Below are positions 40,880 through 58,207 of a stretch of DNA of 64,000 nt, piece by piece. Numbering within the stretch: the stretch's first letter is position 1; each line of letters opens with the position of its first letter. Made by a program: the position numbers and the translations under genes. The notes beneath the pieces were generated by a model. The model saw only the letters and a list, made by a program, of their open reading frames with translations, did not search any database and had not been told where the DNA came from. The stretch is from Salinispira sp. Lineage in GTDB: Bacteria > Spirochaetota > Spirochaetia > DSM-27196 > Salinispiraceae. The stretch spans positions 3,168,001 to 3,232,000 of the forward strand of contig OZ271918.1 in the NCBI GenBank assembly GCA_965602015.1. The letters run 5' to 3'.

Positions 40880-40958
40880 TGATTCGACGCAGTACCCCTT
40901 GATGCGGCAGTCCGTCTGTCTTTGCGGCGGGCTGCCTTTTTTGCCTCCACAATTGCGC

Positions 40959-41007
40959 TTGTGAAAAACGTGTTTCAGCCATATAATAGTGGAAACGTTT
41001 CCACTAT
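40959..41007 (+). promoter_or_regulatory. Sigma70 promoter plus perfect 22-bp LacI operator
   Basis: TTGTGA-N17-TATAAT (40959-40987) overlapped by ATAGTGGAAACGTTTCCACTAT (40986-41007). Confidence 0.88.
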
Positions 41008-41022
41008 CAGGAGCCCGGGCTC

Positions 41023-42003
41023 ATGAGTACCATGAAAGACATAGCGAAATTGGCAGGAGTCGGTCTCGGCACGGTATCCCGTGTCGTCAACGGCACCGGC
41101 CCGGTGAGCGAGGCTACCCGGGAACGGGTTCAGGCGGCCCTTGAGCAAATGCACTACCGGCCGAACAGGATTGCCCGCAAGCTGGTGTCAGGGAAGGCCG
41201 GACGGGGATTCTACGGCGTCCTGATGCCCCTGTTTATTCATCCCTTTTATTTCTACGTCCTGCGGGGAATCAACCGCTTCGTTGAAGAACAGGATATGAA
41301 CCTCATTCTTTTTAACCGGGGCACCCATCCGGAGGAGGCCATTTCCTATTTGCTGCAAGAGGATATTCTCGGTCTGATGGTGATGAGCCACAATCTCAGC
41401 AGGCAGGAGGAGTCCCTCCTGCGGAGCGAGAAACTCGATTTCTGTTATTTGGATTATCACGGCGAACGAAGCCAGGGCGTGTGGATAGATAATTATCTCG
41501 GCGGTGCCGCCGCTGCCGAGTACTTTCTTTCGGGTTCATGCAAAAACATCGCCTTCGTGGGCGATTTGGGCAACTCGCAACAGCAGATTGAGCGCTACAA
41601 CGGCTTTGAGGACACCCTTGAGGCCCGGGGCTGCGGCGTGGCTTTGAGAAAACTTGTTCCCAATCAACCGGCAAGCCTGGAAGCTGTCGAGGAAATTCTC
41701 AGGGAGCGTCCGGAAATCGACGGATTTTTCTTTTTTTCCGACACCCACGCCCTCGAAGCCCTCCCGGCCCTAGCGAAGGCTCCCACCCGCCCCCTGGTAT
41801 GCGGCTACGACAACCTTGATTTCACCAGGTTCCTGGGACTGACCACCGTGCATCAGCCCAAGGAGGAAATGGGATATCAGGGGGCAAGAATGCTTCACCG
41901 AATCATCCACGAACATATTTCCCCTGAAGAGCGCGAGATCGTGCTCAAACCGCATCTGGTAACCCGGGGGCCCCTGGCCCTGAACCATTTTACAGAGGAG
42001 TGA
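41023..42003 (+). CDS. LacI-family transcriptional repressor
   Basis: TMKDIAKLAGVGLGTVSRVVN, YRPNRIAR, GYDN, LTTVHQP. Confidence 0.96.
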   Translation: MSTMKDIAKLAGVGLGTVSRVVNGTGPVSEATRERVQAALEQMHYRPNRIARKLVSGKAGRGFYGVLMPLFIHPFYFYVLRGINRFVEEQDMNLILFNRGTHPEEAISYLLQEDILGLMVMSHNLSRQEESLLRSEKLDFCYLDYHGERSQGVWIDNYLGGAAAAEYFLSGSCKNIAFVGDLGNSQQQIERYNGFEDTLEARGCGVALRKLVPNQPASLEAVEEILRERPEIDGFFFFSDTHALEALPALAKAPTRPLVCGYDNLDFTRFLGLTTVHQPKEEMGYQGARMLHRIIHEHISPEEREIVLKPHLVTRGPLALNHFTEE

Positions 42004-42009
42004 TTCCCC

Positions 42010-44289
42010 ATGATCCGTCCCAAACTACGCGGGAGAGCCGGCGCTCTCTCCATACTCTCCGTATTGATCGTCAGCGCAGCCCTTGCCTCATGCAGCAGTC
42101 CCCCGCCTCCCCCGCCGGCTCCCAGAGCCCCGCGGATTCAAAGGGAGTATCCGGTGAATGAGCCCTGGACTGTGGAGGCCGACCGGGTAGTGCAGGGTGA
42201 CAAAGTAGCCCGGGTTACCGCCGAGGGCGGCATTGAAAGCAGCTACGGCAACAGGATAAAAACCTGGAATCTCTCGGAGGATATTTCGGGGTTGCCGCGA
42301 TTCAGCGCACCAGGGTCGCCGATGCTCGAACTCCTGTACCGCATGGCCCTGGAAGAAGCTCTCCAGGGTATCCGCAGCGACGGGGCGTTTATGGCGGGAC
42401 GGAAATGGACCGGAGTCTGGACCCGGGATATCAGTTACTCTATCCACCTTGGGCTGGCTCATATACTGCCGGAGAACAGCCGTCTCAGCCTGATGGCGAA
42501 AGTCAATGATTTCGGCGAGATCATTCAAGACACCGGAACCGGTGGTTCCTGGCCGATTTCCACGGACCGCATCGTGTGGGCCATTGCCGCCTGGGAACTG
42601 TATCTGGCCCATGCGGATGACAGCTGGCTTGAAGAGGCCATGAGCATCCTTGGAGAAACCCTGAGGCGGGACATGGCTAACGCCGTCGACCCCAACACTG
42701 GTCTGCTGTTCGGCGAAACCTCGTTCCTGGACTGGAGGGAGCAGAGTTACCCCAAGTGGATGGAGCCCAAAGACATTTTCGAGAGCAAGGCCTTCTCAAC
42801 CAATCTCCTGTTCGCCAAGGCCCTGGAAATATACGGAAGAATGAATGCCCTGGCAGGGGATGAGGAAACCGCCGGGGAGTACCTCGGCCGGGCCGCCGAT
42901 CACTACGATATCATCGCCGCTGCCTTCCCCCTGGAGAACGGACTGTACAGCATGTACCTCTACCCGCCGATCCAGGGCAGCCTTCCGTCAGACAAAACCG
43001 GTACACTCAGCAATTCCCTTGCGGTGCTGTTCTCCGCCGACGACGAATCACCGGCTGCCCCCCTGTGGACCGGAGAAATCAGCGCCCGCTTGCCGGCGGT
43101 TCCCTTCGGCATTCCGGTATTCGAACCTCAGCAGCCCAGAATACCGCCTTACCACAATGCGGGGATTTGGCCCTTCGTTGAGGCCTACTATGGTTTGGCC
43201 GCTGCCGCCGAGGGAAACACCGAAGCATTCGAGTTCGCCTACCGGGCCATGAGCCGGAGCGCGGCCCTCTTTCTCAGCCATATGGAAAACATGGTGTACG
43301 ACAACGGCCACTCATCAGGAACCCAGATCAATTCGGAGCGGCAGCTCTGGTCGGTGGCCGGATACCTGTCCATGGTCTACAAGGGCCTGTTCGGCATCCG
43401 CCTCGAAGAGGGCGGGCTATACCTCGAGCCCACGGTGCCCGACATGTTCCCCGGTGGCGAAATCCGTCTGGAAAACTATCGCCTGAGGGGCAGCGAGATT
43501 GCAATAAGCATCAGCGGTTACGGAAACTCCGTTGCCGAGATGACGGTCAACGGGCAACAGACCTTCCCCGGCGAGCTTATAAGCCTGAACGGTGAACCCC
43601 TGGACATCAGCATCATTATGGAATCCGCCGGGGAAACCGGCAGCGTAAACATGATAGCCACGGGAATCGAAGCGCCCCACGAGCCCCAAATTACCGAAGC
43701 TGAAGACGGCACATACTCGTTTCGCAACCTCACCGCCGGTGTAAATAGCCAAGTCTGGAACGGCGAAGCCTTTTCCCCCGCAGCCGAAGGAGTAGTCGAG
43801 CCAAGGCGGGGGGAAATTCTCAGCGTCAGCGCTTCCGCCCCGGCACCGGACGGGCGGACGATCCGCTCGAACCTCAGCCGCTGGCTCTACGATAGGAGCT
43901 CCGCCGTTATCGTTCCGGCTTCGGCGACGGAAAGCTATGTGAAGCTCATCGCCGACGAAGACCAGGTAACAGCATTCAGCGCCGAGCTTCCAGAGCCGGG
44001 ACGGTACTACGTGATTTTCGAATACGCCAACGGCAACGGACCGATCAATACCGATAACAAAACCGCTATTCGCAGCCTGTATGTTAACGGCAGCCCGGCG
44101 GCGACCATCGTTTTGCCCCAACGGGGCACCGAGAGCTGGGGAGATTACGGTTTGTCTTCAGGCGTCATCCTCGACCTGGATTCCCGCATCGCGGAGTTTG
44201 AACTACGTTATCTTGCGGACAACCGTAACATGAATGCGAACGTAAACGAGGCCCGGGTCAGGAATCTCGTACTCATCCCGCTTCAATAG
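42010..44289 (+). CDS. Lipoprotein six-hairpin (alpha/alpha)6 glycoside hydrolase with C-terminal CBM6/35-like module
   Basis: Lipobox LASC plus poly-Pro tether. WTRD, SFLDWREQ, YHNAGIWP, QLWS motifs. C-terminal YANG..IRSLYVNG beta-sandwich. Confidence 0.8.
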   Translation: MIRPKLRGRAGALSILSVLIVSAALASCSSPPPPPPAPRAPRIQREYPVNEPWTVEADRVVQGDKVARVTAEGGIESSYGNRIKTWNLSEDISGLPRFSAPGSPMLELLYRMALEEALQGIRSDGAFMAGRKWTGVWTRDISYSIHLGLAHILPENSRLSLMAKVNDFGEIIQDTGTGGSWPISTDRIVWAIAAWELYLAHADDSWLEEAMSILGETLRRDMANAVDPNTGLLFGETSFLDWREQSYPKWMEPKDIFESKAFSTNLLFAKALEIYGRMNALAGDEETAGEYLGRAADHYDIIAAAFPLENGLYSMYLYPPIQGSLPSDKTGTLSNSLAVLFSADDESPAAPLWTGEISARLPAVPFGIPVFEPQQPRIPPYHNAGIWPFVEAYYGLAAAAEGNTEAFEFAYRAMSRSAALFLSHMENMVYDNGHSSGTQINSERQLWSVAGYLSMVYKGLFGIRLEEGGLYLEPTVPDMFPGGEIRLENYRLRGSEIAISISGYGNSVAEMTVNGQQTFPGELISLNGEPLDISIIMESAGETGSVNMIATGIEAPHEPQITEAEDGTYSFRNLTAGVNSQVWNGEAFSPAAEGVVEPRRGEILSVSASAPAPDGRTIRSNLSRWLYDRSSAVIVPASATESYVKLIADEDQVTAFSAELPEPGRYYVIFEYANGNGPINTDNKTAIRSLYVNGSPAATIVLPQRGTESWGDYGLSSGVILDLDSRIAEFELRYLADNRNMNANVNEARVRNLVLIPLQ

Positions 44290-44334: not shown

Positions 44335-44373
44335 AAAAAGGCTGCCTGAGAACGTTCTCAGGCAGCCTATTTT
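44335..44373. terminator. Bidirectional terminator (perfect 30-bp palindrome)
   Basis: AGGCTGCCTGAGAAC|GTTCTCAGGCAGCCT (44339-44368) flanked by A and T runs between convergent genes. Confidence 0.8.
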
Positions 44374-44426: not shown

Positions 44427-46076
44427 TTAATTAGTCGCAACACTAAGGGTTTGTAACGAACCGGCCTCAAAAGCGACTACCATGATGATTAGGTAGTTGT
44501 AGGCGATACCGTCGAGATTCGTTATGCTCTCGGCAGTTGTACCTCCGTTCGTCGACGCCGTAATAAACGTATCGTCAAGATCGAGGAATTGATCCGAGCT
44601 TCCGTATATCTCCAGATCGAAATTACCGTCGAACATGCTCAGGTCGATGTCGAAGAAGCTCATAATCGGATCAACCGGCACAGACCATGCGTAGAAGGTG
44701 CGTTCGACTCGGAAAAAATCATTGGCTGTAAAGTTGATCGTTCCTCCCCCCATCCCGATACCATAGTCGATGTTGTTCGACAAAATGGTAGCATAGCTTC
44801 CAGCGGGAGCTTCAGTAAGACTGAGGGTGAAGTTACTCACCGGATCCCATCCGATGACTTCGACGATGAGATAATCAAACAAATGATTTGAAGTGACTGT
44901 AATGGCATCATCTCCGGCCGCGGCGCTTGAATACATAAATACATCCAATCCGGCATCAAAAAACTGGTCATCACTGCCATAAACCGCCAAATCGGCATCA
45001 CCGGATGTCATCGCTAAACTGATGTCATAACCATAGTAAACAGTGGACGCAATATAGAAATACTGGGTTTCGCTGTCGGTGATGGTACCCGATTGACTCG
45101 AGAAAGTAGTGAGTTCGTTGTCAATAACCAATACCACTACGGTGGCGCTGTCCGATACGCTTCCGTCGCTAACAGTGAGCGTGAAAATATAGTTTCCGAG
45201 TTCACTAAGGGTGAATGATGCCAGGGCGTCAACGGCATTCGAGATTTGCGCGCTGATATCGATTCCACTGGGAGACAAACCGGTCCAGTTGTAGCTGAGG
45301 GGGTCGGTGTCGGGATCGAAGCTTGCGGTTCCGTCCAATATAATTGTCTGTCCGATATTCGAGGAGAAATCCGGACCCGCATCGGCGACGGGAGGAGTAT
45401 TCACACCTCCGGTATCGGTGACAGTCACCGTCACCGTATCGCTGGCAAGGTCTGTCCCGTCATCAACCGTCAGGGTGAAGACATAGTCGCCTACAAGGCT
45501 CACGGTAAATGCCGCAATTTCGGTAGCAGCATTGCTGATCTGGGTGCCGATATCGATACCTCCCGGGGCTGTACCGGTCCATTGGAAGGTCAGGATATCG
45601 CCGTCGGCATCGAAGCTGTTGCTTCCGTCAAGGGTAATGCTTTCTCCGACAGTTGCGGAAAAGTCGGCCCCCGCATCGGCAACCGGAACACTGTTGCCCC
45701 CGGTTCCGCCGCCGGTGACGGTAACGTTGACAGTATCGGTATCTTCGTCAAGGCCGTCGTCCACGGTAATAATAAAACTGTATGTCCCGGACTTTGTCAG
45801 GGTGATGGTTGCTTCTTCATTGAGACGGTTGCTTATATCGGCAGTGACGTCATCACCGTCGGGATCGGTTCCGTTCCAGCGGAATGTGAGCCTGTCTCCG
45901 TCGTTATCATAGCTTCTCGAACCGTCGAGAGTGACGGTCTGCCCGACTGTTGCCGCAAAGTCAGTTCCCGCATCGGCAACCGGCGCTTCATTGTCGACAA
46001 TGAAGCCCAGAAAGTCACAGGAGCCGATGGCAAGGACGACTATTGCAAGGATAAATATTTTTAAAATATTTTTCAT
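44427..46076 (-). CDS. Acidic lipoprotein with three PKD-like and two PPC-like domains
   Basis: Lipobox IGSC-DFLG, 3x PVADAG.D....G....LDGS.S.D.D.D.L...W, 2x DI.L....G..DL..YGS. SD GAGG before ATG 46076. Confidence 0.85.
   Translation of the reverse strand: MKNILKIFILAIVVLAIGSCDFLGFIVDNEAPVADAGTDFAATVGQTVTLDGSRSYDNDGDRLTFRWNGTDPDGDDVTADISNRLNEEATITLTKSGTYSFIITVDDGLDEDTDTVNVTVTGGGTGGNSVPVADAGADFSATVGESITLDGSNSFDADGDILTFQWTGTAPGGIDIGTQISNAATEIAAFTVSLVGDYVFTLTVDDGTDLASDTVTVTVTDTGGVNTPPVADAGPDFSSNIGQTIILDGTASFDPDTDPLSYNWTGLSPSGIDISAQISNAVDALASFTLSELGNYIFTLTVSDGSVSDSATVVVLVIDNELTTFSSQSGTITDSETQYFYIASTVYYGYDISLAMTSGDADLAVYGSDDQFFDAGLDVFMYSSAAAGDDAITVTSNHLFDYLIVEVIGWDPVSNFTLSLTEAPAGSYATILSNNIDYGIGMGGGTINFTANDFFRVERTFYAWSVPVDPIMSFFDIDLSMFDGNFDLEIYGSSDQFLDLDDTFITASTNGGTTAESITNLDGIAYNYLIIMVVAFEAGSLQTLSVATN
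45125..45992 (-). repeat. Three tandem ~99-aa PKD-like coding repeats
   Basis: CCCGCATCGGC(A/G)AC recurs at about 45967, 45671 and 45377 (period about 295 bp). Confidence 0.85.
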
Positions 46077-46092
46077 ATGCACCTCGTAAAGG

Positions 46093-46232
46093 ATTGGATA
46101 TATCAATAGTATAGCGCACAAAAACTGCAGATGACCCTTGCCCGCGATTTTTATTTTAAAAAAATAACACAATTAATGTTGAGTATTTATGTCATAATTA
46201 ATATTTGCTATTTTTAAAACGATATATCCAAT
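46093..46232. repeat. 12-bp inverted repeat pair flanking AT-rich divergent promoter region
   Basis: ATTGGATATATC (46093-46104) and GATATATCCAAT (46221-46232), 116 bp apart. Confidence 0.65.
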
Positions 46233-46235
46233 TTA

Positions 46236-46264
46236 TTGATTTACCCCCTTCTCCATGATAGTAT
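46236..46264 (+). promoter_or_regulatory. Sigma70 promoter of large acidic lipoprotein
   Basis: TTGATT-N17-TAGTAT with extended TG. Confidence 0.6.
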
Positions 46265-46307
46265 GTACCATACCAGACCCCTATCCCATCATATTAGGAG
46301 CCCAAAT

Positions 46308-48311
46308 ATGAAACCACGAAAAGCAGCGCTTGTGCGCTCAATCGCGATCGTAGCGGTGATTGCAGTATCACTGGTATCCTGCGATTTCATCGGCGGAGAT
46401 CCGCCGGCGGATGTCACCATTGAAGAGCAGCTCGAAATAGCCCGTGAATTTCTCGACGCACAGGATTTCGATGCGGCCTACGAGGCATACAGCCAGGCAA
46501 TTCTCATCGACCCCACCAGCAGCGAGGCCCTCATGGGCTATGCGGTGCTCGAGCTTGGGTCAATCTCCACCGATCCGGCAGTTCGCACTGTCGCTGGTCA
46601 AAACATGGGCATCGTCGGATACCCGGACAATATGAACGATGTGTTTACCCTGGCGTTTATGGACGAGTTCATCCGCGAGTACACATACTGGGACGGAACC
46701 CAGGACGTAACGGAGACCTACACCACCTACGCACCGGTAATTGTCGGAATGGAAGCCTTCGACGGTGTTTTTGAAGTAGACGGAGTAGGCGACGGTGTAA
46801 TCGACCCCGATGAACGGGCAATCGCCATGCTTTCCTATTTCGCTGCAAACAATAGCGGATTCAACAGCATCGCCCAAACCCTGAATCCCATGCTCGAAGC
46901 CCGCATCGCCAATGCAATCAGCGCAATCTCCGCCCTGCCGGAAGACTCGAGTTTCGAATTCACCTGGAATATGTTCGTCGATACCCAGGACGAATGGGGC
47001 TACAACGATGTGAACGACAGTCCCCTTCCGGTGGTAATCGGCAAGGCCGAACTCCAGGTTCTTCTGAGCGGACTGCATTTCTTTAACGGCAACCTGAATC
47101 TGCTGCAGATGTACAACTTCGACGTTCCTTCTCTGCAGGCCTACTACGATTTTTTCAACCCCATTGACGGTAGCTTCGACCTGGCCGACATGCCGGCCAA
47201 CCCGCTTCTGACCTTCGGAACCCTCAACACCGACGCAGAGGCCCACAGAACAGCCGCCCGTCAGTCGTACATCGATTCGACCCTCTCCGCCATGGCTTTT
47301 ATTGACGGTGTACTCACCGACCGCGCCGGGTTCACCCTCTCTTCCGACGGCGCATACGACGGGGTAAACGGTCCTCTGTGGTCTGATATTACGGTAGAGA
47401 TGACATTTGCGAAAAACATCATCCAGGAGTTCCACGACTCATTCTCGAACGGAAGCACCGCCTATCTCCCCGTCGGTGCGGGCAGCGATGAATATGCAGC
47501 GTACAACGCCGCATGGCCCACTGCTGTGGAATTCGATGTTGACGGCCTCCCCATCGTCGTGGCAGCAAATCCGGGAGCATTTTTTACCGCCGGTCCCTAT
47601 GCGCTTCTGAACTTTGTCGACCACAACGATCTCAATCCGGTATTTTATGAGATCGACGGGGCAGGAATGGTTGAAGTCAGTGCGGTGCCCGACCTGAGCA
47701 GCGGAGTTTTTCCGGACTACGCCATAAAAATCCCCGGTTCGGTTATCAACAATTTCGCACCGACTGAGAACTATGTGTACGATGATCCTACAGACCCCGA
47801 TCATGCCGTTGTCGACTATTGGTTTAACTATTCAGATATGGATGGCGACTTCTACTGGGATGAAGGTGAAATGATCCACAACCTTGAGTTGTACCGAAAT
47901 TATCCCAAAGGCCTGATAAACATCAATCTTCTTGAAAGCGGTTACGGCTCGGACCCCATCACCTTTTTTAGCAACCAGTATCCCGACATCTATGCAGTCC
48001 CCGATGCCATTATCGAAGACATCATTTTCTGGGAAGTGGACAGCCTGACAGACGCCGGAGCCGACGGTTCGGTGGTCGATGATTTCCGGGATGCAGTGGC
48101 TGCGGACTTCGCCTTCTGGTCGTCCTCATACTCAGGCAGTGCAACGATTGCCGATCCGGCAACAGGCGACATCTACCTGCTCTTTAAAGGTGCGCTGGCA
48201 CAACTGGCCGCCCTCACCCTGGCAACCGAAGGAACCGTAGTGAACATCGACGGCACGGATTACACTGCCACCGGCGATTTTTGGGAAGCATTTTTTGTTC
48301 TAAACTTCTAA
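46308..48311 (+). CDS. Large acidic lipoprotein with N-terminal TPR and Dx[DN]xDG-like loops
   Basis: Lipobox LVSC-DFIG, TPR-like AREFLDAQDFDAAYEAYSQAILIDP, DGVGDGVIDPDE and DMDGDFYWDEGE. SD AGGAG before ATG 46308. Confidence 0.8.
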   Translation: MKPRKAALVRSIAIVAVIAVSLVSCDFIGGDPPADVTIEEQLEIAREFLDAQDFDAAYEAYSQAILIDPTSSEALMGYAVLELGSISTDPAVRTVAGQNMGIVGYPDNMNDVFTLAFMDEFIREYTYWDGTQDVTETYTTYAPVIVGMEAFDGVFEVDGVGDGVIDPDERAIAMLSYFAANNSGFNSIAQTLNPMLEARIANAISAISALPEDSSFEFTWNMFVDTQDEWGYNDVNDSPLPVVIGKAELQVLLSGLHFFNGNLNLLQMYNFDVPSLQAYYDFFNPIDGSFDLADMPANPLLTFGTLNTDAEAHRTAARQSYIDSTLSAMAFIDGVLTDRAGFTLSSDGAYDGVNGPLWSDITVEMTFAKNIIQEFHDSFSNGSTAYLPVGAGSDEYAAYNAAWPTAVEFDVDGLPIVVAANPGAFFTAGPYALLNFVDHNDLNPVFYEIDGAGMVEVSAVPDLSSGVFPDYAIKIPGSVINNFAPTENYVYDDPTDPDHAVVDYWFNYSDMDGDFYWDEGEMIHNLELYRNYPKGLININLLESGYGSDPITFFSNQYPDIYAVPDAIIEDIIFWEVDSLTDAGADGSVVDDFRDAVAADFAFWSSSYSGSATIADPATGDIYLLFKGALAQLAALTLATEGTVVNIDGTDYTATGDFWEAFFVLNF

Positions 48312-48398
48312 AATTCCCGCGCAAGTGCCATATTCGGCAGGGCTGCACACATGCAGCCCTGCCGTTTTTTTCTCCCTGGGGTAGAATAGAAAAATACC

Positions 48399-50597
48399 AT
48401 GAATATTTTCCGCCGTTTTGCGGCGATAGCTGATACATATAACCGGCGTACCGGCGCCTGGGGCAGCATCCCCTTTTTCCTCCTCACCATCGCGGCCATA
48501 TTTTTTGTGCCCGAAATCGGGGTCGGTTCAAAACTTTCGGCATACGAGCCGGACAGCGCCGAGTATCTCGAACTGCGCAGTCTGCTTGGCAATCCAACGG
48601 TTGAAGACAGCTCGCTGGTGATTTTTTTCCCCGAGGACCTATTTTCGCCGGACAGCGAGCAGCGGCTAAAAGAGCTCAGTATCAACATAAAAGAAGCGCC
48701 CGGGGTAAACGATGTCTTTTCCCCAGTCGATTTATCCGGAGAGTCAACGTCACCGGGCTGGCTCAAGCGCAGTCTCGAAGGCGACAACCTGGCGCGTCAG
48801 ATTTTTTTATCTCCCGACGGCCGCTCAATCAGCATCTACGTCCACTATGACGACTACCGCCTCACCATACCTGCCGTTGAAGAACTGGTGAACCGGATGG
48901 ATGACGCGGTTTTTTTTGATCAGAATTACTACGGGTCCTACATTCAATCCCGTATCGTGGGGCAACTTCTTCGCTGGCTCGCGCTGGCAACCGCTGTTAT
49001 ACTCGGCGTGCATTACTGGTTTATCCGCAGCCTGCGCCACAGCCTGGCCTTGCTCATTACCGCCGTCATGCCCGCCATGTGGACCCTGGCATTAATTGCC
49101 GTTTTCGTTCCCGTGGCGACCCTCGAGCTGATTCTGGTTCCCCTTGAGGTGTTTATCCTGGCAACCAGTTTCGGTGTACACCTGTATCAGCATAAGCGGG
49201 AGATAAACGCACAAAAAAGCGATGGTGTTTTTAACGTGCAGCTGGTGGTAAGCCTTGCGGCGGGAACCACCCTCGCCGGAGTGCTCTCGCTCAGCTGGTC
49301 TGTTTTTGCAGAAATTCGCACCATTACGTTCTGGTTGGCGGCGGGCATCGGGTTGGCCCTGTTTGCCTCGATATTCGTTCTGCCTTCCCTCCTTTCCCTG
49401 TTTACCAGGAAACCCAACCCGCCCCATCCCGGCCTTGAGAGGTTCATCGATTCGGCATCCCGCCGGGGACGGGCGGCTATTGTCTCCGCGCTCGTTGTGT
49501 TTAGCGTCTTTATTTCACAAATTCCCATGGTGATGGGATACTTCGGTTATGACGATGCATTCGGGCGGATATCTCCCCTGTTCTCTGAAATTTCTGTCTA
49601 CCGAAACAGCTATTCGAACCGTTCCGAGCTGGAGCTGCTCATCGACAGCGGAAGAGAATACGGACTTGTGGATCCCGCCGCCCTGATTGCGGTCAAAGAG
49701 CTTACAGAAAGCCTGGATTCGCTTCCGGAAGTGACCGCGACCATCAGTTATGCCGATGTGGTGGACTGGTACCTGCGCAGCGACGGCGCAGAACCGGGCA
49801 GCCCGGCATTTGAATACAGCGATGTGATAATCGGCGAGAGCCTCGAGCTAAGTAAATCTTCGAGAGCCGGAATCCTGCTGGACAGTCTGATAGACCGATC
49901 ATATCAAAAAGCCCGGGTGCGAATTTTCTACGTTTCGGCCGATGGAAGCCGAAGGTCAATGCTCGTTCTCAATAACTTGGTTGAGCACATCAAGGGCGAG
50001 TTCGCTGCGGAATTTGAAATCGCCAGCGGCATGACTCTCAGACCATCGGGCTGGGGCTATTTACGATCGAGAAGTTATGACTATCAGATAGAGGACCAGA
50101 TCCGCGGGATTCTGCTGTATCTGGCGATTATCAGTCCGCTCCTGCTTATCAGCCTCCGGTCTCTTCGCCTATGGCTTATTTCCCTTGTCCCGGTCATATT
50201 CGCCCTGACGCTGTTTTTCGGGGCCATGGGCCTGCTTGGAATACCGAATAAAAGCATGATGTACCTGATGTCCGCCATTGTTATGGGAGTGAGCATCGAC
50301 GATTCCCTTGTTCTTATGTTGGCGGTCAAATACGGCGCCGGCCCCCCGAGCAATAGAATCCCGAATACCTTAAGGCTTTTTGGACCTTCCATCGTGCAGA
50401 CAACTGTACTACTATGTGCGGGCCTGGGCGTATTGTTCTTCACCGAATACCGTTACCTGGCCGAAGCCTCGTTTCTAACCATTTTTGCTCTGATTGGAGC
50501 CACGCTTGTAACAATCGCGGTTCTGCCGGTCTTGCTGCAGCAATGGCTGACGTCCAAGGAGAAAAGCGAAAATCCCGGGCCGAAGGAAAGTTCATGA
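48399..50597 (+). CDS. MMPL/RND family transporter
   Basis: Two repeats of TM + periplasmic domain + 5 TM, GVSIDDSL, and a G..I..TT..L..G motif. Confidence 0.85.
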   Translation: MNIFRRFAAIADTYNRRTGAWGSIPFFLLTIAAIFFVPEIGVGSKLSAYEPDSAEYLELRSLLGNPTVEDSSLVIFFPEDLFSPDSEQRLKELSINIKEAPGVNDVFSPVDLSGESTSPGWLKRSLEGDNLARQIFLSPDGRSISIYVHYDDYRLTIPAVEELVNRMDDAVFFDQNYYGSYIQSRIVGQLLRWLALATAVILGVHYWFIRSLRHSLALLITAVMPAMWTLALIAVFVPVATLELILVPLEVFILATSFGVHLYQHKREINAQKSDGVFNVQLVVSLAAGTTLAGVLSLSWSVFAEIRTITFWLAAGIGLALFASIFVLPSLLSLFTRKPNPPHPGLERFIDSASRRGRAAIVSALVVFSVFISQIPMVMGYFGYDDAFGRISPLFSEISVYRNSYSNRSELELLIDSGREYGLVDPAALIAVKELTESLDSLPEVTATISYADVVDWYLRSDGAEPGSPAFEYSDVIIGESLELSKSSRAGILLDSLIDRSYQKARVRIFYVSADGSRRSMLVLNNLVEHIKGEFAAEFEIASGMTLRPSGWGYLRSRSYDYQIEDQIRGILLYLAIISPLLLISLRSLRLWLISLVPVIFALTLFFGAMGLLGIPNKSMMYLMSAIVMGVSIDDSLVLMLAVKYGAGPPSNRIPNTLRLFGPSIVQTTVLLCAGLGVLFFTEYRYLAEASFLTIFALIGATLVTIAVLPVLLQQWLTSKEKSENPGPKESS

Positions 50598-51319
50598 AGA
50601 AAAGCTATGCAATTATCGCAATCATACTGCTGATAAAAGGCTACCCACTCTTGGCTGAAGACGCCCGGAGTATTGTAGAAGACGCTCATGTATTCGGAAA
50701 CAGCAGGTCACTGTATATCCGCCTCGATATGGAAATCCAAGAGGCCGGCGACTCTACAGTCAGGGGAATCGAGATTTACCGGAACCTCAGCGAGCAGGAG
50801 CGTCAGCTTCTGATTCAGGTCGTTACGCCTCCGTTTTTACGATCCATGAAATTTCTTCAACTCGAAACCGGTTCTTCCCAAAGCCAGCAGTGGCTGGCCA
50901 CTTCCCGCGGCGTTCGAAGGATGGGCTCCGGCGACGGCAGCACCCGCCTGTTCGATTCGGATTTCACTTTGGACGATTTTTCTTTTTCCGATGTGGACGA
51001 ATATGCCTATACGACAATTTCCGATGACGGAGCCATGACCACCATTCGCGCTGTCCCGGCGGCGTCCGCCGGGGAGCAGCGGCTCTTGTATATCGAAAAC
51101 AGCAGCTCAATCATTACCCGGGTAGATTACCTTGACAGCCGGGGCGAACTGGTAAAACAGTACCGGGTCCTCGAGTTTTTCGAAGATACCGCTGGCAGAT
51201 TTCCCCGGGTCGCAAGAATGGATTCCTTCGGACGTGGCAGTCATACCGAGATCCATATAAGCAGTTTTGACGATGAAAGCAGCATTCCCTCGAGGATTTT
51301 CCACCGGGGCAGCCTGTGA
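50594..51319 (+). CDS. LolA-like 'outer membrane lipoprotein-sorting' protein
   Basis: Signal peptide, PPFLRSMKFL, RGVRRM, LFDSDFTLDDF, RVDYLDSRGELVK, IPSRIF. ATGA overlap with MMPL. Confidence 0.85.
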   Translation: MKKSYAIIAIILLIKGYPLLAEDARSIVEDAHVFGNSRSLYIRLDMEIQEAGDSTVRGIEIYRNLSEQERQLLIQVVTPPFLRSMKFLQLETGSSQSQQWLATSRGVRRMGSGDGSTRLFDSDFTLDDFSFSDVDEYAYTTISDDGAMTTIRAVPAASAGEQRLLYIENSSSIITRVDYLDSRGELVKQYRVLEFFEDTAGRFPRVARMDSFGRGSHTEIHISSFDDESSIPSRIFHRGSL

Positions 51320-52641
51320 CATCAATGCGCGCATTCTTTGCCGCCATGCTGTTCTGCTGCAATGCCGCGCTGCTGTCCGCCGAGGTTCTTCTTGGCTTTG
51401 AGGGCGGCATACGTCTCGAGCAGCTGTTCGACCGCCAGGCTTTACCGCTGCATAGCGAACTGTACGCCCGGCCTTCGCTGGCTGCCTTCGGCAACTCGAC
51501 GGATGTCAGCATAACCCTCGAGCTTCGGCAAACCACGGAAAATCCCGATGATCCTCTGCTGCTGACCATTGCCGATGCCCGATTTGATTATTATCCGACC
51601 CAGTGGCTCACGTTCAGCGTCGGACGCTACGCCTACCGCCCCGGCAGTGCGGCATTCATCAGCCCGAGTTCCTTTTTCTCGCGGCCTCCCCTGGAGGAAA
51701 CCCTGCGGCAAGGCCCGTCGGCGACGGCAGTCACTGAACTAATACAGTCCACTTTTTTCCTTCCCCGGGGATTTATCCGGTTGACCATTGAGCCTTCCCG
51801 GGGAGGAAGCCCTCTGCCGTCGCCGGATTCACCCTGGTTTCCCACAAAGGATGTTCCAGAGAGTATTTTTCTCAGGCTGCCGATCCTGTTCCCCGACGGC
51901 GTGACCCTGACCAGGGGTACGTTGAGAATAGAGGATGACCAGACAGCGGCGTTTCGTTTCGCAGATGCGTCATACAGCGCCGAGCTGATGTTGTATGCAA
52001 TCCCTGGGGTGGACGCCCAGGTGTCGTATTTTTACGGCAGAGATCCATTCCCGAACTTCAGCTATGAAACCAGCATTCCGAAAGGTTTTTACGAAGGTGC
52101 GCCTTTCGACGTCACGGTAAGAAGCAGCGCTGTTCACACCCATGCAATAGGGCTCAATGTAGAGGGAACTGCCGGGCGTTTCAGGTTTTTTACCGACGGC
52201 TCACTCATGCCGGTAAAGGAATTTTTCACCGAACGTTTCTACGATCCGGACAACGATCCCAGGTCCCGCAGGCTTCCCTTCCTCCGGGTATCCGCCGGGG
52301 GTACGGTGGATTTCTATGAACCTTCGGTTTTGCTGTTCGCGGAGCTGTTTCATTCAATAGCCTTTGGCGATAACGAGGACATCAGCCTTCCGGTGCTGAA
52401 CTCAATAGCTGTGGCAGGCGCAAATGCCTCGCTGTTCAGGGGAGTGCTGCAGGTCAGTTTTTCGCCGGTTTTTACGCTGTACGAACCCGGAGCAGTAGTG
52501 CCGCTCTATGTTTCACTCCAGCCCGATGACAACAGCGAGTTCTCCCTCTATACCCCGCTGTTTCTCGGATCTCCCGACGGCGATTTGGGACAATATCAAA
52601 ATCTGAACCTCATCCGCTTCGAAGCCCGCTGGAAATTCTAA
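51316..52641 (+). CDS. Putative outer-membrane beta-barrel protein
   Basis: Signal peptide, amphipathic strands, C-terminal IRFEARWKF beta-signal. GTGA overlap with the LolA-like gene. Confidence 0.7.
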   Translation: MTSMRAFFAAMLFCCNAALLSAEVLLGFEGGIRLEQLFDRQALPLHSELYARPSLAAFGNSTDVSITLELRQTTENPDDPLLLTIADARFDYYPTQWLTFSVGRYAYRPGSAAFISPSSFFSRPPLEETLRQGPSATAVTELIQSTFFLPRGFIRLTIEPSRGGSPLPSPDSPWFPTKDVPESIFLRLPILFPDGVTLTRGTLRIEDDQTAAFRFADASYSAELMLYAIPGVDAQVSYFYGRDPFPNFSYETSIPKGFYEGAPFDVTVRSSAVHTHAIGLNVEGTAGRFRFFTDGSLMPVKEFFTERFYDPDNDPRSRRLPFLRVSAGGTVDFYEPSVLLFAELFHSIAFGDNEDISLPVLNSIAVAGANASLFRGVLQVSFSPVFTLYEPGAVVPLYVSLQPDDNSEFSLYTPLFLGSPDGDLGQYQNLNLIRFEARWKF

Positions 52642-52642
52642 T

Positions 52643-52675
52643 AAAAAAACCCCGCCGGCAGCCGGCGGGGCTTGT
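52643..52675. terminator. Terminator between convergent genes
   Basis: A run plus CCCCGCCGG/CCGGCGGGG hairpin. Confidence 0.8.
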
Positions 52676-52700: not shown

Positions 52701-53549
52701 TTACATTTCCTCTACGGGAAAGGTGATTACTACGGTGTTGGTTTTTTCGTCGTAGAAGCGGCTGTTGGCGCCGACGCGAACCGCAGGGTCGGAGCTGACG
52801 TCGCCGAAGGGATCGTTCATTGCCCACTGATTCTTGAGCACGAATGCAATGTCGCTCTCAAATGCCGAGAGGTTACGGGTTTCGTCATCGCCGTCTTCGA
52901 AGGCGAAGAGCATGACGCCGGGCTTGAAGCTGTCCTGGTTTTCCGGAGTGAATACGGCTTCGGAAATCCAGATGTTGCTTTCGGGTTGGTTCCACATAAT
53001 GGTCTTTGAACCGGTGTCCCAACCAGCGCTCTTGGCGCCGAAGGCGTCACCGCTTTTTACCCACTGTCCCTTGAGGAAGACGGGGTACATCCATGCCGGG
53101 GCAAAATCGAGCCCGTAGGTGGTAAACTCGTTGTCGGCGATCATCTGCACGGCGTCGGCATCAACAACCCAACGGACGGTAATGCTGCCTTCGGGGGCCA
53201 GGTAGAGATAATCTTCGGCAATAGAGGTGCCGACCTGCACTTCAATTTGCTCGTCTACTTCCTCGGGAACGCGGAACCAGATGGTCTGGTCATCCCAGCC
53301 GAAAAACCGGTCAAGGGCAACGCCGTTGAGGTAGATGAGACCCGGGGTGTCGCCGAAACCTTCGCCCTTAATGGACACGAGGGTTCCCGGAAGGACGTTG
53401 AGCGGATAGAGACCGTAGACTTCCGCGCCGGAAAGATCGGCATCGGGGGTTCCGGTAATTACATACTGATTCATGCCGCCGCAGCTGCTCAAAAGCAGAA
53501 CGGCCAGCAGCAGGGCAAAACCTGCAGAGCGGAAAACATTTTTGCGCAT
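52701..53549 (-). CDS. Lipoprotein with IPT/TIG domain and uncharacterised C-terminal domain
   Basis: Lipobox LSSC and PGTLVSIKGEGFG...WDDQTIWFRVP. SD AGGAGG before ATG 53549. Confidence 0.8.
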   Translation of the reverse strand: MRKNVFRSAGFALLLAVLLLSSCGGMNQYVITGTPDADLSGAEVYGLYPLNVLPGTLVSIKGEGFGDTPGLIYLNGVALDRFFGWDDQTIWFRVPEEVDEQIEVQVGTSIAEDYLYLAPEGSITVRWVVDADAVQMIADNEFTTYGLDFAPAWMYPVFLKGQWVKSGDAFGAKSAGWDTGSKTIMWNQPESNIWISEAVFTPENQDSFKPGVMLFAFEDGDDETRNLSAFESDIAFVLKNQWAMNDPFGDVSSDPAVRVGANSRFYDEKTNTVVITFPVEEM

Positions 53550-53573
53550 AATTCCTCCTATTATTGCATCGTA

Positions 53574-53630
53574 CTTGGAAACGTTTCCAAGAGACCTGAA
53601 GATTATAGAACCTGTGTTTTCATTCGTCAA
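53574..53630 (-). promoter_or_regulatory. Sigma70 promoter plus perfect 18-bp LacI operator
   Basis: TTGACG-N17-TATAAT (53630-53602) and CTTGGAAACGTTTCCAAG (53574-53591) just downstream. Confidence 0.88.
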
Positions 53631-53651
53631 ATATTAAGATCGCCGCAGAGC

Positions 53652-53682
53652 AAAAAAAACCGGCGCGGATTGGGCGCCGGTT
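53652..53682 (-). terminator. Intrinsic terminator after alpha-amylase
   Basis: CCGGCGC/GCGCCGG hairpin plus T8 on the minus strand. Confidence 0.85.
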
Positions 53683-53709
53683 ACAGAGCGTGCTTTTTTT
53701 AAAGACCTG

Positions 53710-55449
53710 TCAGTTGCGAATGACTCGGAACACGTAACTTGCCCGGTTTCCCAGCTCCGGAAGGGGAGAATAGTTCTCGAATCCGCCGTTTTCGTTAATC
53801 TGCGGCTGGGTGATTCCCGCGACATCGCCGCCGGGAAGGTATTCGAACCCGTCGTCATCGGCGGTGTAAATCAGCTCGAGGCTGTAGCCGTCTTTCCACG
53901 GGGATTCTTCGAGGAACAGTCCGTAATCCTCCCGGAGACTGCCCAGATTATGAAGCACCAGCAGGGCTTCATCGTCGGTGTAGCGGAAGAACGAGTAAAG
54001 GCGGCGGGAGCTCACCCCTACATGGGCGAGGTCGCCCCGTCGCAGGGCATTCTCGCTATTGCGCAGGTTCACCAGGGCCCGGTAATGGTTCAGCAGCGAT
54101 GCCGGGTCCCGGTCCATCGTTTCCACATTGCGGCTTTCCAGATCAGCCGCATAACCCTGCCAGGGTTCGACGCTGCTGAATCCGCCGTCGGGGCTCCAGT
54201 GCATGGGCCGGCGGAGATGCTCATCGGGCTTGTCCCCTTCCACGCCGATTTCCTCGCCGTAGTATATAAAGGGAATGCCGGGTCCGGTGAGAAGCAGAGC
54301 TGCCGCACTTCGCATGGCCGCCGGGTCACCGTCCAGGAGGGTCGCCGAGCGGGTCTGGTCGTGATTCGACAGGAAACGGCCGTATTGGCCTGGAGGATAC
54401 AGGGCATTGACCTGCTCCTGCCGGGCTACCAGGTCGGAGCCGTTAGTTGTCCGTACGGCGTTGAGCATTGCGGTTGCCAGGTCGAACTCAAAAGCCGTGT
54501 CCACCTCATCACCCACGTATTTCGCGACTTCCTCGCTGTTGGTCCACACCTCGCCGATGGTAAAGGCCTCGGGATTGATACCTTTGTAGTATTCGTAAAA
54601 AATCTGGAACCATTCGTGATTGCTGAAACTGTTCAGGAGGATATTCCCCTCTTCCTTGAGATACATGATTGCGTCCAGACGGAAGCCGTGCACGCCGATG
54701 TCTTCCAGCCAGTAGCGGATAATCTCATTAATCTCGCGGTTCACCTCGGGATTCCAGAAGTTCAGGTCGGGCATGCCGCCCCAGAATAAACCGTAGTAGA
54801 AGCGCCCGTTGCCGCCGTTATGCCATACCTGCTGACCCCAGGGACCGACGGTTTCGGGGTTTACATCCTGCCATACGTAATAGTCCTCATATTGGGGATC
54901 ACCGGCGCGGCTTGCAATGAACCAGGGATGCTGAATGCTGGAGTGGTTGAGAACAAGGTCCATGATGATCATTATTCCGCGCTTTTCCGCTTCATCGAGA
55001 AGCTGCCGGAAATCATCCATGGTGCCGTAATCCGATTCTATGGAATAGTAGTCGGTGACGTCGTAGCCGTGATAACTGGGACTTTCGTTAATGGGCATCA
55101 GCCAAATTCCGGTGATTCCCAGATCATCGCTGGTGGAATCATCGCCGTCGTTTATGTAGTCGAGCTTTTCGATGATCCCTTGAATGTCGCCGATGCCGTC
55201 ACCGTCCGAATCATAAAACGATCGGACGAAAATCTGGTAAAAGGTGCGGTCATTCCACTCCTGCACCGCGCTCGGGTCGTACTCGCCGGTAAACGGCGTT
55301 CTGGCGTCCGAAACTGCTTCGGGCTCCGCAGCGGGTGGAGGCGGAAGCTCGGGCTGGGTCGCACAGCCGGCCAGCAGTATGACAGTCACCCCAATGACTG
55401 TCAGCAGGGCGCCGAAGCGCGCTGATTTATGTCTGCGTGTGTGGTTCAT
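53710..55449 (-). CDS. Lipoprotein alpha-amylase (GH13, GH13_36-like)
   Basis: Lipobox LAGC plus Pro tether. FYQIFVRSFYDSDGDGIGD, DLVLNH, MPDLN, GFRLDA, GEVW, SNHD. Confidence 0.93.
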   Translation of the reverse strand: MNHTRRHKSARFGALLTVIGVTVILLAGCATQPELPPPPAAEPEAVSDARTPFTGEYDPSAVQEWNDRTFYQIFVRSFYDSDGDGIGDIQGIIEKLDYINDGDDSTSDDLGITGIWLMPINESPSYHGYDVTDYYSIESDYGTMDDFRQLLDEAEKRGIMIIMDLVLNHSSIQHPWFIASRAGDPQYEDYYVWQDVNPETVGPWGQQVWHNGGNGRFYYGLFWGGMPDLNFWNPEVNREINEIIRYWLEDIGVHGFRLDAIMYLKEEGNILLNSFSNHEWFQIFYEYYKGINPEAFTIGEVWTNSEEVAKYVGDEVDTAFEFDLATAMLNAVRTTNGSDLVARQEQVNALYPPGQYGRFLSNHDQTRSATLLDGDPAAMRSAAALLLTGPGIPFIYYGEEIGVEGDKPDEHLRRPMHWSPDGGFSSVEPWQGYAADLESRNVETMDRDPASLLNHYRALVNLRNSENALRRGDLAHVGVSSRRLYSFFRYTDDEALLVLHNLGSLREDYGLFLEESPWKDGYSLELIYTADDDGFEYLPGGDVAGITQPQINENGGFENYSPLPELGNRASYVFRVIRN

Positions 55450-55523
55450 AATTACCCCTTTGATAACAATTCCGGTCAGTATAATTCAAAGCTGTGCCGG
55501 GGTTAAGAGAAAAATCCTCGTAA

Positions 55524-55546
55524 ACTGGAAACGTTCCCAGTATAAT
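55524..55546 (+). promoter_or_regulatory. LacI-type operator abutting -10 box in divergent amylase/debranching-enzyme promoter
   Basis: ACTGGAAACGTTCCCAGT (one mismatch) followed by TATAAT at 55541. Confidence 0.8.
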
Positions 55547-55570
55547 GGTGGGCCGAGGAGAATGGGGACA

Positions 55571-58207
55571 ATGATAAAACGTATAAAAACCCTGCTGACA
55601 ACAGTACTCATGAGCGGCGCATTGCTGCTCGCCCTGTCCTGCGTCAGTGCGCCGGAGGCTGAAGCCGAACCGGTATCGACGGGAATCATGATTTTTAATC
55701 GAGGAACCGACATGGAAAGCATCGATCAACTGCTCGCAGCCAGGAAGATCCCCGCAGAGGACTACGAACGATACCGGGATGTTTCGGCAATCACCATCGA
55801 ATCGGGCAGCCGGGAACAGTACGTATTCGGCGACAATATTTCAGGTTACTGGGAGGGCATAAGCCACTCCTACCGCCGGGCAAACGGCTACCAGATTGCC
55901 GAAAGCGTCGTCCTGGCCGATATTGCCGCCGCAGCGAACGGTTCCCTGGTAAACCGCCGTATCGCCGCGGAGCAGGCCGTCCTGCGCCCAGGGGAGATCA
56001 TTCATGAATACCCCGGATTTTCCGAGGGCCTGTACCTTTTAGGCGGTGAGCACAGCATGGCTCTGACCCTGGAATCGACTGGAGAACCGGCCTACATGTC
56101 GTTCTTTCCGGCATTCAAAACGAGCTTAAACCGCTACCAAATCCGCATCGAAGAAGGAGTCTTCCTCCTGGTTCCTTCCCGCACATCGGCGGATTACCCC
56201 GCGGTCATTGCCGTTTCCTCATCGGTCCCCATGCAGATGGCTGAGAATCTGGCAGCCTCCTTCGGCCGGGTCACCGACGGCGGAAGAGTCAGCGTTAACG
56301 GGGCACCCTCCCAGCTCACAGAGATCCTAGCGGATGTGGATGTGGATACCCTGATCCAGTCCGAGAGGGAAATCAGGAACGCCATCAACGTCTCGGACCG
56401 CAGTCCCCTGCTGAGCTTCACCAGCACGGAACCGCAACTCCGTGCAGAGTTCTTCGTCAGTTTCGGTTATGATGAGGCCGATGCGCTGGAGCGGGCAAAA
56501 CGGGTGAGAGACGGGGGTATACGCCGGCACCAGGCTGACACCGCGGAACTCAGCCTGGCGAGCCGGATTTTCTTTCCCGATGTGGAGCTGGAACGAGCAC
56601 TCTACTGGAGCGCCTATTCGGGCTATACCATGGTGACCCGGCAGTACGGCACGGGCATCTGGGCAGGCCTGCCCTGGTTCAGGCAAAACTGGGGCCGTGA
56701 CACCTTCATAGCCCTTCCGGGAATACTCCTGACCACCGGAAGATTCGCCGACGCCCGGGATGTCCTGCACACTTTTTCCCAGTTTCAAAACCTCGACTCA
56801 GCGGATGCCACCTACGGAAGGGTGCCGAACAGGGTAAATAATCCGGATGACATTATCTACAACACAACCGACGGTACCCCCTGGCTGATTCGCGAAGCCG
56901 AGGAATACATGCAATACAGCGGGGACCTGGAGTTCGCCGGGGAAATCCTCGACCTGGCCCGTCATTACATCGACGGGGCGCTGCAGAATTTCGTTGGAGA
57001 TGACGGACTGCTCTACCACGATGATGCGGATACCTGGATGGACGCCCGCATCAACGGCGATGCCCCCTGGTCCGCCCGGGGCAACCGGGCGGTTGATATC
57101 CAGGCGCTGTGGTACCGCTCACTGCTGTCCGCCGCGTCCATCGCCAGGATATCCGGCGAGGACGATCTGGCGCTGCAATGGGAGGCGCTGGCTGAAACCG
57201 CCCGCAGCTCCTTTAGCGCCCAGTTCTGGGACGGCGAACTCCTGGCGGACCGGATACGTCCCGACGACAGCCGGGATACCAAGGCCAGGCCAAACCAGCT
57301 CATGGCCATTTCAGTGCCCTATCTGGGAGACTTCAGTGAAGGGCAATTCATCTCGCCTGATATTCAGGCGGCAGTGGTGAAAAATTCCGTAGACAGCCTT
57401 TTGTATCCCCACGGCATCGCAAGCCTCGATCCCGGACATCCGTACTTCCACCCCCGGCACGATCAGACCGGAATGTTTCACAAGGACGCGGCGTATCACA
57501 ACGGAACAATCTGGGGCTGGAACGCCGGTCCCGCCCTTACCGCCATGCTCAAGCTCGGAGCCGCAGAACTCTCGGGCGGGTTGATTCTCAACCTGGCTTA
57601 TCAGATCAACAGCCTCGGCACTCTCGGAAGCATGTCCGAGCTCGTCGAGCCGCTTCTCGCCGAGGACGGAAGCGTGGTGCCGTCGGGAACCTTTTCCCAG
57701 GCCTGGAGCGTCAGCGAATTTACCAGGGTCCTTCATCAGGATGTGCTTGGATTCCGGCCGCGGCTTCTGGAGGGCCGGGTTGCCCTGTCGCCGATGATCC
57801 CGCAGAGCATCCTTGGTCCCGGAGAAACAATCGATGCCCGTTTTTCCTTTGGTGATGGGCTGGCTCTTAACGTGACCGTTGACCAAGATGGTGCAAACAA
57901 CCGGGAATACCGAATCCTTCTCGAGGGCGGAGCTCCGCTTGCGCTGGATTTCGCCTCCCATAATTCTTTGAGAGGATGGCAGGGCGCTTCATTTAATCTG
58001 ACGCCCGGAGAAGAACTCATCATCCGGACAGCTGCGGACGGTTCTGCCCTTGACGGAACCGCATGGGAAACCCTGTTTCCCGCCTTTCCCGAAATGGTGG
58101 CAGGCCTGAGCTTTCGCGACCCCGTTGCGGACGGAGAAAGACCTTACCCGGCAATGGAGGAATCGAACTACTTAAAAACAATCATCGAGGCCGGAGACTT
58201 CCGCTAA
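55571..58207 (+). CDS. Lipoprotein amylo-alpha-1,6-glucosidase (GDE_C/GH133-like debranching enzyme)
   Basis: Lipobox ALSC. AGLPWFRQNWGRDTFIALPG, YNTTDGTPW, TWMDA, RPNQ, YHNGTIWGW, QAWSVSE. Start 55571 (alternative 55562). Confidence 0.9.
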   Translation: MIKRIKTLLTTVLMSGALLLALSCVSAPEAEAEPVSTGIMIFNRGTDMESIDQLLAARKIPAEDYERYRDVSAITIESGSREQYVFGDNISGYWEGISHSYRRANGYQIAESVVLADIAAAANGSLVNRRIAAEQAVLRPGEIIHEYPGFSEGLYLLGGEHSMALTLESTGEPAYMSFFPAFKTSLNRYQIRIEEGVFLLVPSRTSADYPAVIAVSSSVPMQMAENLAASFGRVTDGGRVSVNGAPSQLTEILADVDVDTLIQSEREIRNAINVSDRSPLLSFTSTEPQLRAEFFVSFGYDEADALERAKRVRDGGIRRHQADTAELSLASRIFFPDVELERALYWSAYSGYTMVTRQYGTGIWAGLPWFRQNWGRDTFIALPGILLTTGRFADARDVLHTFSQFQNLDSADATYGRVPNRVNNPDDIIYNTTDGTPWLIREAEEYMQYSGDLEFAGEILDLARHYIDGALQNFVGDDGLLYHDDADTWMDARINGDAPWSARGNRAVDIQALWYRSLLSAASIARISGEDDLALQWEALAETARSSFSAQFWDGELLADRIRPDDSRDTKARPNQLMAISVPYLGDFSEGQFISPDIQAAVVKNSVDSLLYPHGIASLDPGHPYFHPRHDQTGMFHKDAAYHNGTIWGWNAGPALTAMLKLGAAELSGGLILNLAYQINSLGTLGSMSELVEPLLAEDGSVVPSGTFSQAWSVSEFTRVLHQDVLGFRPRLLEGRVALSPMIPQSILGPGETIDARFSFGDGLALNVTVDQDGANNREYRILLEGGAPLALDFASHNSLRGWQGASFNLTPGEELIIRTAADGSALDGTAWETLFPAFPEMVAGLSFRDPVADGERPYPAMEESNYLKTIIEAGDFR

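Follow-up and report, generated by a model that had tools for sequence, protein, structure and literature searches.

The window analysed here is 64,000 bp of the Salinispira sp. contig OZ271918.1 (forward-strand positions 3,168,001 to 3,232,000), and it contains an 8.2-kb block of five genes at 44427–52641. This block is an accessory cassette, one of a Spirochaetota-specific branch of MMPL pump, LolA-like carrier and DUF1302-type barrel genes that is tied genetically to one large acidic lipoprotein, in this instance LipB. The reading that we favour, at somewhat under an even chance, is that the cassette brings the linked lipoprotein to the outer membrane, where it is displayed on the surface. 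A previous, sequence-only reading of the same DNA had proposed that the pump extracts, the carrier ferries and the barrel displays lipoproteins tagged CDFxG, with the Asp at position +2 keeping them out of the housekeeping Lol pathway; the dedication of the cassette to a neighbouring lipoprotein is plausible, but the address is unsupported (see below).

The genetic tie is evident in a tree of LolA-like proteins (56 rows, quick IQ-TREE), in which a 24-row clade (SH-aLRT 100) was compared with 32 outgroup rows; the latter are next-best matches and hence a non-random choice, and several of their loci are cut on one side. Linkage required a gap of no more than 600 nt and either a match to a LipB hidden Markov model (HMM) or a predicted lipoprotein of at least 250 amino acids (aa) with less than 6.5% Lys plus Arg (K+R). 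This rule flags 14 of the 24 clade rows and none in the outgroup. One flagged neighbour (at L057) was dropped as an M48 peptidase and two genomes were added via barrel loci that lie apart from the LolA-like gene (G068 L067 and G097 L151), so that the final linkage to a large, K+R-poor lipoprotein is 15/24 clade rows versus 0/32 outgroup rows. LipB is the neighbour at ten of the linked loci and a second family, LipX, at the other five, and four clade rows are cut by contig ends (L035, L055, L107 and L108). The chance of adjoining a rule-passing gene in the same genome is 2–12%. The linkage was first seen beside the closest pump relatives and then checked on further loci, and nine linked loci (L060, L061, L064, L066, L067, L100, L104, L109 and L151) lie outside the first LolA, barrel and LipB alignments. 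The sequence-only reading had named a usual lack of adjacent lipoproteins at homologous trios as evidence against its proposal; in the close clade most have one.

The clade belongs to free-living spirochaetes; it is present in 18 of 99 genomes of the order and is rare beyond it (2 of 401 genomes of the phylum). LipB is found in eight of the 99 (four of which are training rows), all eight carry the clade LolA-like gene, and LipB adjoins a clade gene in seven, with the eighth copy on a 2.9-kb contig. The position of the lipoprotein gene varies: it can precede the pump gene, stand between those of carrier and barrel, follow the barrel gene or diverge from the carrier gene, and the linkage thus withstands rearrangement. 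There are also instances of duplication and separation. At L040 and at L100 the barrel gene and the LipB gene are each present twice, one genome (G075) apparently has two barrels around one LipB, and in G097 the barrel and lipoprotein genes are together, apart from the MMPL–LolA pair. A scan of the genome_contigs collection gave eight loci, of which just L100 was analysed as new, and a metagenome scan gave six, three of which (L103, L105 and L106) are MMPL-only and were left out of the tree. In draft genomes as assembled, the second barrel gene of L040 (13312-14675) is interrupted by a frameshift or stop and the LipB gene of L067 (4280-8328) is split into two open reading frames; a candidate barrel at L041:7400-8599 failed to align and was removed. 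A sister branch in a single genus (L041:8689-11921, L042:1-4241, L062, L063 and L065) has a clade-type MMPL behind a fatty-acid O-methyltransferase-like gene; its LolA-like gene stands by itself at another place, next to what is probably a pyruvate kinase gene.

LipB is a predicted lipoprotein and the founding member of a family linked to the cassette and named by no library searched, with just sub-threshold TPR matches. Like LipA, the second predicted lipoprotein of the block, it is rich in Asp plus Glu (~15% in both) and poor in K+R (2.8%; 1.6% in LipA). It has TPR-like helices, a loop at mature residues 134-145 that we take to be EF-hand-like from its consensus, and a C-terminal TGDFW motif. 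Among 13 LipB rows the loop is present in eight (two others are fragments lacking this part), and most rows have a (T/L)GSFW-type motif at the C-terminus; K+R ranges from 2 to 8%, and relatives have PKD or Big_2 domains added in front, with variable N-terminal extensions of up to 1455 aa. Because of the low K+R, the EF-hand-like loop and the domain fusions, LipB looks extracellular. A structural model of moderate quality (predicted local distance difference test score, pLDDT, 70) has TPR-like helices broken up by insertions and no Foldseek match at E 0.001; fold comparison (VIA) gives generic TPR and helical matches that barely cover residues beyond ~380. Word-index protein searches with the barrel and with the LipB alignment returned the window's own protein alone, a result of limited sensitivity that does not imply absence.

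The five LipX genes (~300 aa; Table 1) include one, at L061, that probably belongs to the family, and all five strong matches adjoin clade genes. LipX is unrelated to LipB (hhalign probability 0.04) and has no Pfam match in the four members scanned; the L151 member has 7.8% K+R and is counted as linked by family rather than by the K+R rule. Two unrelated lipoprotein families thus share the same cassette slot, and an exchangeable occupant fits a cargo better than a fixed subunit.

LipA has a weaker tie. It contains three PKD/Ig domains and is one of several PKD-type lipoproteins in the same genome (G000) with a Cys-Asp/Gln-hydrophobic mature start. Other clade loci showed no LipA-like gene standing apart, and the tie is weak for this reason. 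The likeliest role of LipA is that of a passenger, or of a split-off PKD module, on the general route of the C-D-hydrophobic class described below. The two lipoproteins had been regarded as otherwise unrelated, which is correct only in part: in relatives of LipB the core is joined to a PKD domain of LipA type (at L040, with E 6e-20 to LipA), with PKD matches in L040 and L060 and weak ones in L066 and L100, and in the window the PKD domains are in the divergent LipA.

The trio itself is of a published cassette type, an HAE3/MMPL pump with a LolA-like protein and a predicted 18-stranded DUF1302-like barrel. The pump matches PF03176 above its cut-off, and its best NCBIfam model is TIGR00921 (HAE3; E 9e-21, below that model's cut-off). 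It has the motifs LATSFGVH in transmembrane segment 4 (TM4) and GVSIDD in TM10; all 32 aligned close relatives have at least one Asp in a GV(S/G)xDD-type TM10 motif and a TSYGxH-type TM4 motif, in place of which the outgroup pumps checked have GIGIDY and GSAYGIH. The LolA-like protein has a signal peptide without a lipobox, matches PF17131 (E 4e-18, 66 bits against a cut-off of 30) and structure 3BK5 (E 0.006), and has no DUF1329 Pfam match. The barrel protein is a predicted outer-membrane beta-barrel ending in a C-terminal Phe, without a Pfam match at E 0.01, PF06980 (DUF1302) included; its ESM Atlas score is 0.98, and 22 of 30 matches there are in DUF1302 clusters. The barrel model (pLDDT 85.7) has ~18 strands as counted from the DSSP string, and its best fold matches are OccD and AlgE (Z 21-22, TM-score 0.58-0.59), with no Slam entry among the best 50 listed.

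The DUF1302/DUF1329/COG4447/HAE3 cassettes described to date, as far as the accessible parts of the reports go, include AmeABCD of Castellaniella defragrans, for monoterpene export (PMC6394551), Sama_1588-1591, for export of a cell-wall component (10.1101/072470), and PP_0765-0766 with PP_2018-2019, in ester metabolism (10.1101/2020.07.04.188060); DUF1302 folds are reported as AlgE/OccD-like, and a DUF1302-DUF1329 complex is predicted with an interface score (ipTM) of 0.84 (PMC13499233). The window's block similarly combines an HAE3-type pump and a periplasmic protein of LolA fold with a barrel that is predicted to have 18 strands and to resemble AlgE/OccD. However, it has no COG4447/Ycf48 (BNR) propeller gene, its carrier is a short PF17131 form (241 aa, versus 451 aa for AmeB), its fourth gene encodes a large acidic lipoprotein of the LipB or LipX family, and no link to hydrocarbon catabolism was seen. 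It is therefore a variant rather than a strict AmeABCD member. The cassette type is already known, and what appears new is the lipoprotein-linked spirochaetal branch with the LipB and LipX families, for which we found no published description in literature that excludes supplements and most subscription journals.

The five genes, the divergent arrangement of the acidic lipoprotein genes and their mature starts are all as first described, as is the coupling within the trio, where both junctions have 4-base overlaps (ATGA between the MMPL and LolA-like genes, GTGA between the LolA-like and barrel genes). The block had also been called terminator-bounded. There are hairpins at both edges, although the U tract of the right one is confined to the minus strand, and there is an additional, canonical terminator after lipB (z -3.9; as good in 0/200 shuffles). 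The block is thus not a single unbroken unit, and it comprises no fewer than two transcription units, probably three (Table 1).

Table 1. Features of the block (window coordinates, counted from the first base of the 64,000-nt stretch) and of related loci (locus or genome coordinates)
Feature	Position	Strand	Details
Left-edge hairpin	44339..44368	.	bidirectional, terminator-like; hairpin scan, z -6.7 and -8.5
lipA	44427..46076	-	549 aa; ATG behind GAGGT; mature start CDFLG
lipB	46308..48311	+	667 aa; behind AGGAG; mature start CDFIG
Intrinsic terminator between lipB and MMPL gene	48335..48371	+	13-bp stem 48335-48364 + U7
Possible weak trio promoter	48359..48387	+	CTGCCG-17-TAGAAT; read by eye, not flagged by scan
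MMPL gene	48399..50597	+	732 aa; PF03176
LolA-like gene	50594..51319	+	241 aa; PF17131
Barrel gene	51316..52641	+	441 aa
Right-edge hairpin	52647..52673	-	hairpin 52650-52670; terminator of convergent downstream gene
LipX gene	L036:13119-14084
LipX gene	L037:149-1117
LipX gene	L064:1211-2200
LipX gene	L151:7744-8628
LipX gene	L061:814-2016		probable member
C-D-hydrophobic lipoprotein examples	G000:C1:84466, 206442, 335838, 1682362, 2669257

A complete congeneric genome (G002) keeps both flanking genes while the entire block is absent from the syntenic site, which supports the block boundaries as those of a unit gained or lost. In its place (G002:C1:123368-125434, L110:6369-8435) G002 has a group II intron, whose reverse transcriptase/maturase matches TIGR04416 above cut-off, and a small gene for a 215-aa secreted, barrel-like protein. 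The flanks (window 39056-44289 and 52701-58207) form an alpha-glucan locus, syntenic in G002, with GH13 enzymes, a LacI regulator, glycosidase lipoproteins and a debranching-enzyme-like lipoprotein. A role for the block in this maltodextrin locus was rejected, as those genes persist in G002 without it. The downstream lipoprotein with a CGGM start passes the K+R rule, yet it is a member of the conserved flank (78% identical in G002).

In the delivery model, LipB would be lipidated at Cys25 following Sec export, and the proton-driven MMPL pump would lift its lipid anchor from the inner membrane. The LolA-like protein would then ferry the acyl chains through the periplasm and the barrel take them over, such that LipB becomes surface-exposed and folds with calcium outside. 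Specificity would reside in the pairing of barrel and lipoprotein rather than in the common tether, and the internal terminator may provide for plentiful LipB and scarce machinery. All of these transport steps are inferred. The model is favoured because unrelated folds occupy one slot and because the pairing of barrel and lipoprotein persists where they are duplicated and where they lie apart from the pump. There are analogies with Slam (type XI secretion) and its cognate surface lipoprotein, SusC with SusD, Aat with CexE/dispersin, and Dispatched with Hedgehog, examples of a barrel gene with its own lipoprotein, of a dedicated exporter of an acylated protein, and of the release of a lipid-anchored protein by an RND-family member. 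Differences are that the block's barrel, judged by its best fold match, resembles neither Slam nor the TonB-dependent barrels and that there is no TolC or adaptor gene. A cluster in Borrelia (BBJ23-29) with ABC, LolA-like and Omp85 components has been put forward as a possible exporter of lipoproteins, with no linked cargo gene in the accessible part of that report (PMC13078400); it has a MacB/LolCDE-like ABC motor and an Omp85 barrel where the block has an MMPL pump and a DUF1302-like barrel.

Several observations weigh against delivery of a lipoprotein. Five clade rows are negative (L056, L058, L062, L063 and L065), and L153 has no lipoprotein on the visible side of its barrel. In G005, LipB lies beside a divergent LolA-like gene with no clade barrel at E 1e-25, and no cassette lies within 1.5 kb of three weak LipX relatives. 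Two MMPLs with the clade TM10 motif (L041 and L042) adjoin neither a barrel nor a lipoprotein, and the gene next to that of L041 resembles fatty-acid O-methyltransferases. Related genomes are non-independent and most are fragmented drafts. The tether of LipB also occurs on adhesin-like lipoproteins in genomes that lack the cassette, and a general export route must therefore exist. The published cassette members, in the portions available, suggest a cargo that is small and hydrophobic or comes from the cell wall (PMC6394551; 10.1101/072470; 10.1101/2020.07.04.188060), and the nearest folds of the modelled barrel, AlgE and OccD, are narrow channels and not known protein translocons. There are two further points from the literature, each taken from partly accessible reports. 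First, LolA3 of Porphyromonas gingivalis and Flavobacterium johnsoniae is described as a LolA paralogue with no LolB pairing and no known cargo (PMC13103446, PMC11885536), and deletion of F. johnsoniae LolA3 with all other LolA and LolB proteins left a surface (LES) reporter unaffected (PMC11885536); LolA3 is a possible parallel to the block's carrier. Second, Lpt, the established candidate in spirochaetes, is the reported route for surface lipoproteins in Borrelia (PMC11326224) and Bacteroides (PMC13692018), although this is disputed (PMC10353723). The Lpt route is general and chromosomal, with components unrelated to the trio. LptF/G genes are present in G000, and the LptD models PF04453 and PF19838 have no match there, a negative without weight, as the same models match just 2/14 and 1/14 control genomes.

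The main alternative, although on balance a doubtful one, is that the trio moves a lipid or other hydrophobic small molecule, as has been suggested for AmeABCD-type cassettes, and that LipB or LipX is a partner of the barrel (a lid, receptor or scaffold in a SusD-like role) reaching the surface by the general pathway. All experimental data on the cassette type in the accessible sources concern hydrophobes or envelope components, a sister MMPL is beside a lipid-methyltransferase-like gene, and LipB bears a genome-wide tether; the narrow channel predicted for the barrel would be suited to such a substrate, and the 2:2 ratio of barrels to LipB in L040 and L100 is as compatible with a stoichiometric partner as with a cargo. 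The split TPR-like helices of LipB also recall SusD, entries for which align with the model at Z 9.1-9.2 (rmsd 3.9-4.3, 137-138 residues), but these rank 42 and 44, below generic TPR matches and within the noise for helical proteins, and no SusD is among the best 60 of 88 sequence matches. A fixed partner is also harder to reconcile with the unrelated, beta-rich-looking family in the same slot, with the long variable extensions of LipB, and with the terminator downstream of lipB, a hint that the products of lipB and of the trio differ in amount.

Co-inheritance of cassette and lipoprotein on variable islands rich in surface-protein genes, with no functional tie, is improbable. The block is accessory and in a variable site, the clade is patchy and its members include close kin, all as expected from hitch-hiking. 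However, linkage is kept at ~20-35% protein identity across six families of the order, two genomes outside it and a metagenome contig, and the several gene orders, the two unrelated lipoprotein families and the absence of linkage in the outgroup are not readily explained in this way.

The proposed CDFxG address was considered against 204 predicted lipoproteins of G000 with at least 100 mature residues, found by a heuristic lipobox scan rather than SignalP. The exact 5-mer CDF[LI]G is in two of these, LipA and LipB, both in the segment that G002 lacks. The other six lipoproteins in the window do lack both +2 Asp and the CDF motif (CATG, CNGT, CSSP, CGGM, CATQ and CVSA), but the apparent scarcity of +2 Asp is peculiar to the window, as 25/204 carry it genome-wide. 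Nine begin with CDF and 21 with C-D-hydrophobic, so that the motif is common genome-wide, a result that the sequence-only reading had taken as contrary to its proposal; 38 begin with C-x-hydrophobic-hydrophobic. Near matches (CDLLG three times, CDFLT twice, and CDFIL) are dispersed across the genome, and the other 19 of the 21 C-D-hydrophobic lipoproteins are 26 kb to 980 kb from any LolA-like gene. The motif enrichment anticipated beside homologous trios was not seen, with CDF(I/L)G in 0/14 cassette-adjacent lipoproteins of other genomes with a visible start and +2 Asp in 1/14. A DNA pattern for lipobox-C-D-hydrophobic-hydrophobic, which recovers 7/21 class members in G000, occurs in 47/99 order genomes (15/99 for a reversed-pattern control), in 10/18 with the clade LolA-like gene versus 37/81 without it (Fisher p 0.60), and in G002, G003 and G006, which lack clade genes. 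Because the C-D-hydrophobic pattern is general and no commoner with the clade, and homologous neighbours lack the exact motif, the notion that this MMPL reads CDF(I/L)G as a Lol-avoidance address routing LipA and LipB is largely refuted, and we regard it as very improbable.

The C-D-hydrophobic start is nonetheless a real, general class and a candidate surface tether tag (Table 1). Adhesin-type domains (PKD/Ig/FN3/LamG/InlB-B/PPC) are present in 9/19 of its proteins versus 0/20 controls drawn at random from 109 eligible (p 4e-4), solute-binding proteins in 1/19 versus 7/20, and K+R is low (median 0.042 versus 0.074, p 7e-11). This domain content points away from +2 Asp acting as an inner-membrane retention signal, and the enterobacterial +2 sorting rule is reported, in the accessible portion of the source, not to hold in Borrelia (PMC2987989). 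G000 also has one canonical LolA and three further LolA-like cassettes with barrel-like genes and paired LolC/E-like ABC permeases (G000:C1:1030081-1034518, 2970237-2976149 and 3833689-3839767), all three with orthologues in G002 and none with an adjoining low-K+R lipoprotein. A bolder proposal, which we consider unlikely, is that LolA-like and DUF1302-type barrel cassettes form an undescribed class of surface-lipoprotein secretion, in which an RND pump or a LolCDE-like ABC transporter would extract, the LolA-like protein carry and the barrel display the lipoprotein; the MMPL version would be dedicated to a single cognate cargo, and the C-D-hydrophobic adhesin class could depend on the conserved ABC versions, making the tether a spirochaetal export signal.

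The route by which spirochaete lipoproteins reach the surface is unsettled, with conflicting Lpt results in Borrelia. DUF1302/LolA-like/MMPL cassettes are widespread and lack a proven cargo, and the branch described here offers a candidate cargo or partner at the same locus. If it does export a protein, this would be a case of a bacterial RND pump extracting a lipid-anchored protein, with an 18-stranded barrel as the route to display. The export signal for spirochaetal surface lipoproteins is stated, in the accessible part of one report, to be not identified (PMC11885536); the C-D-hydrophobic tether on adhesin-like lipoproteins is a testable candidate for it.

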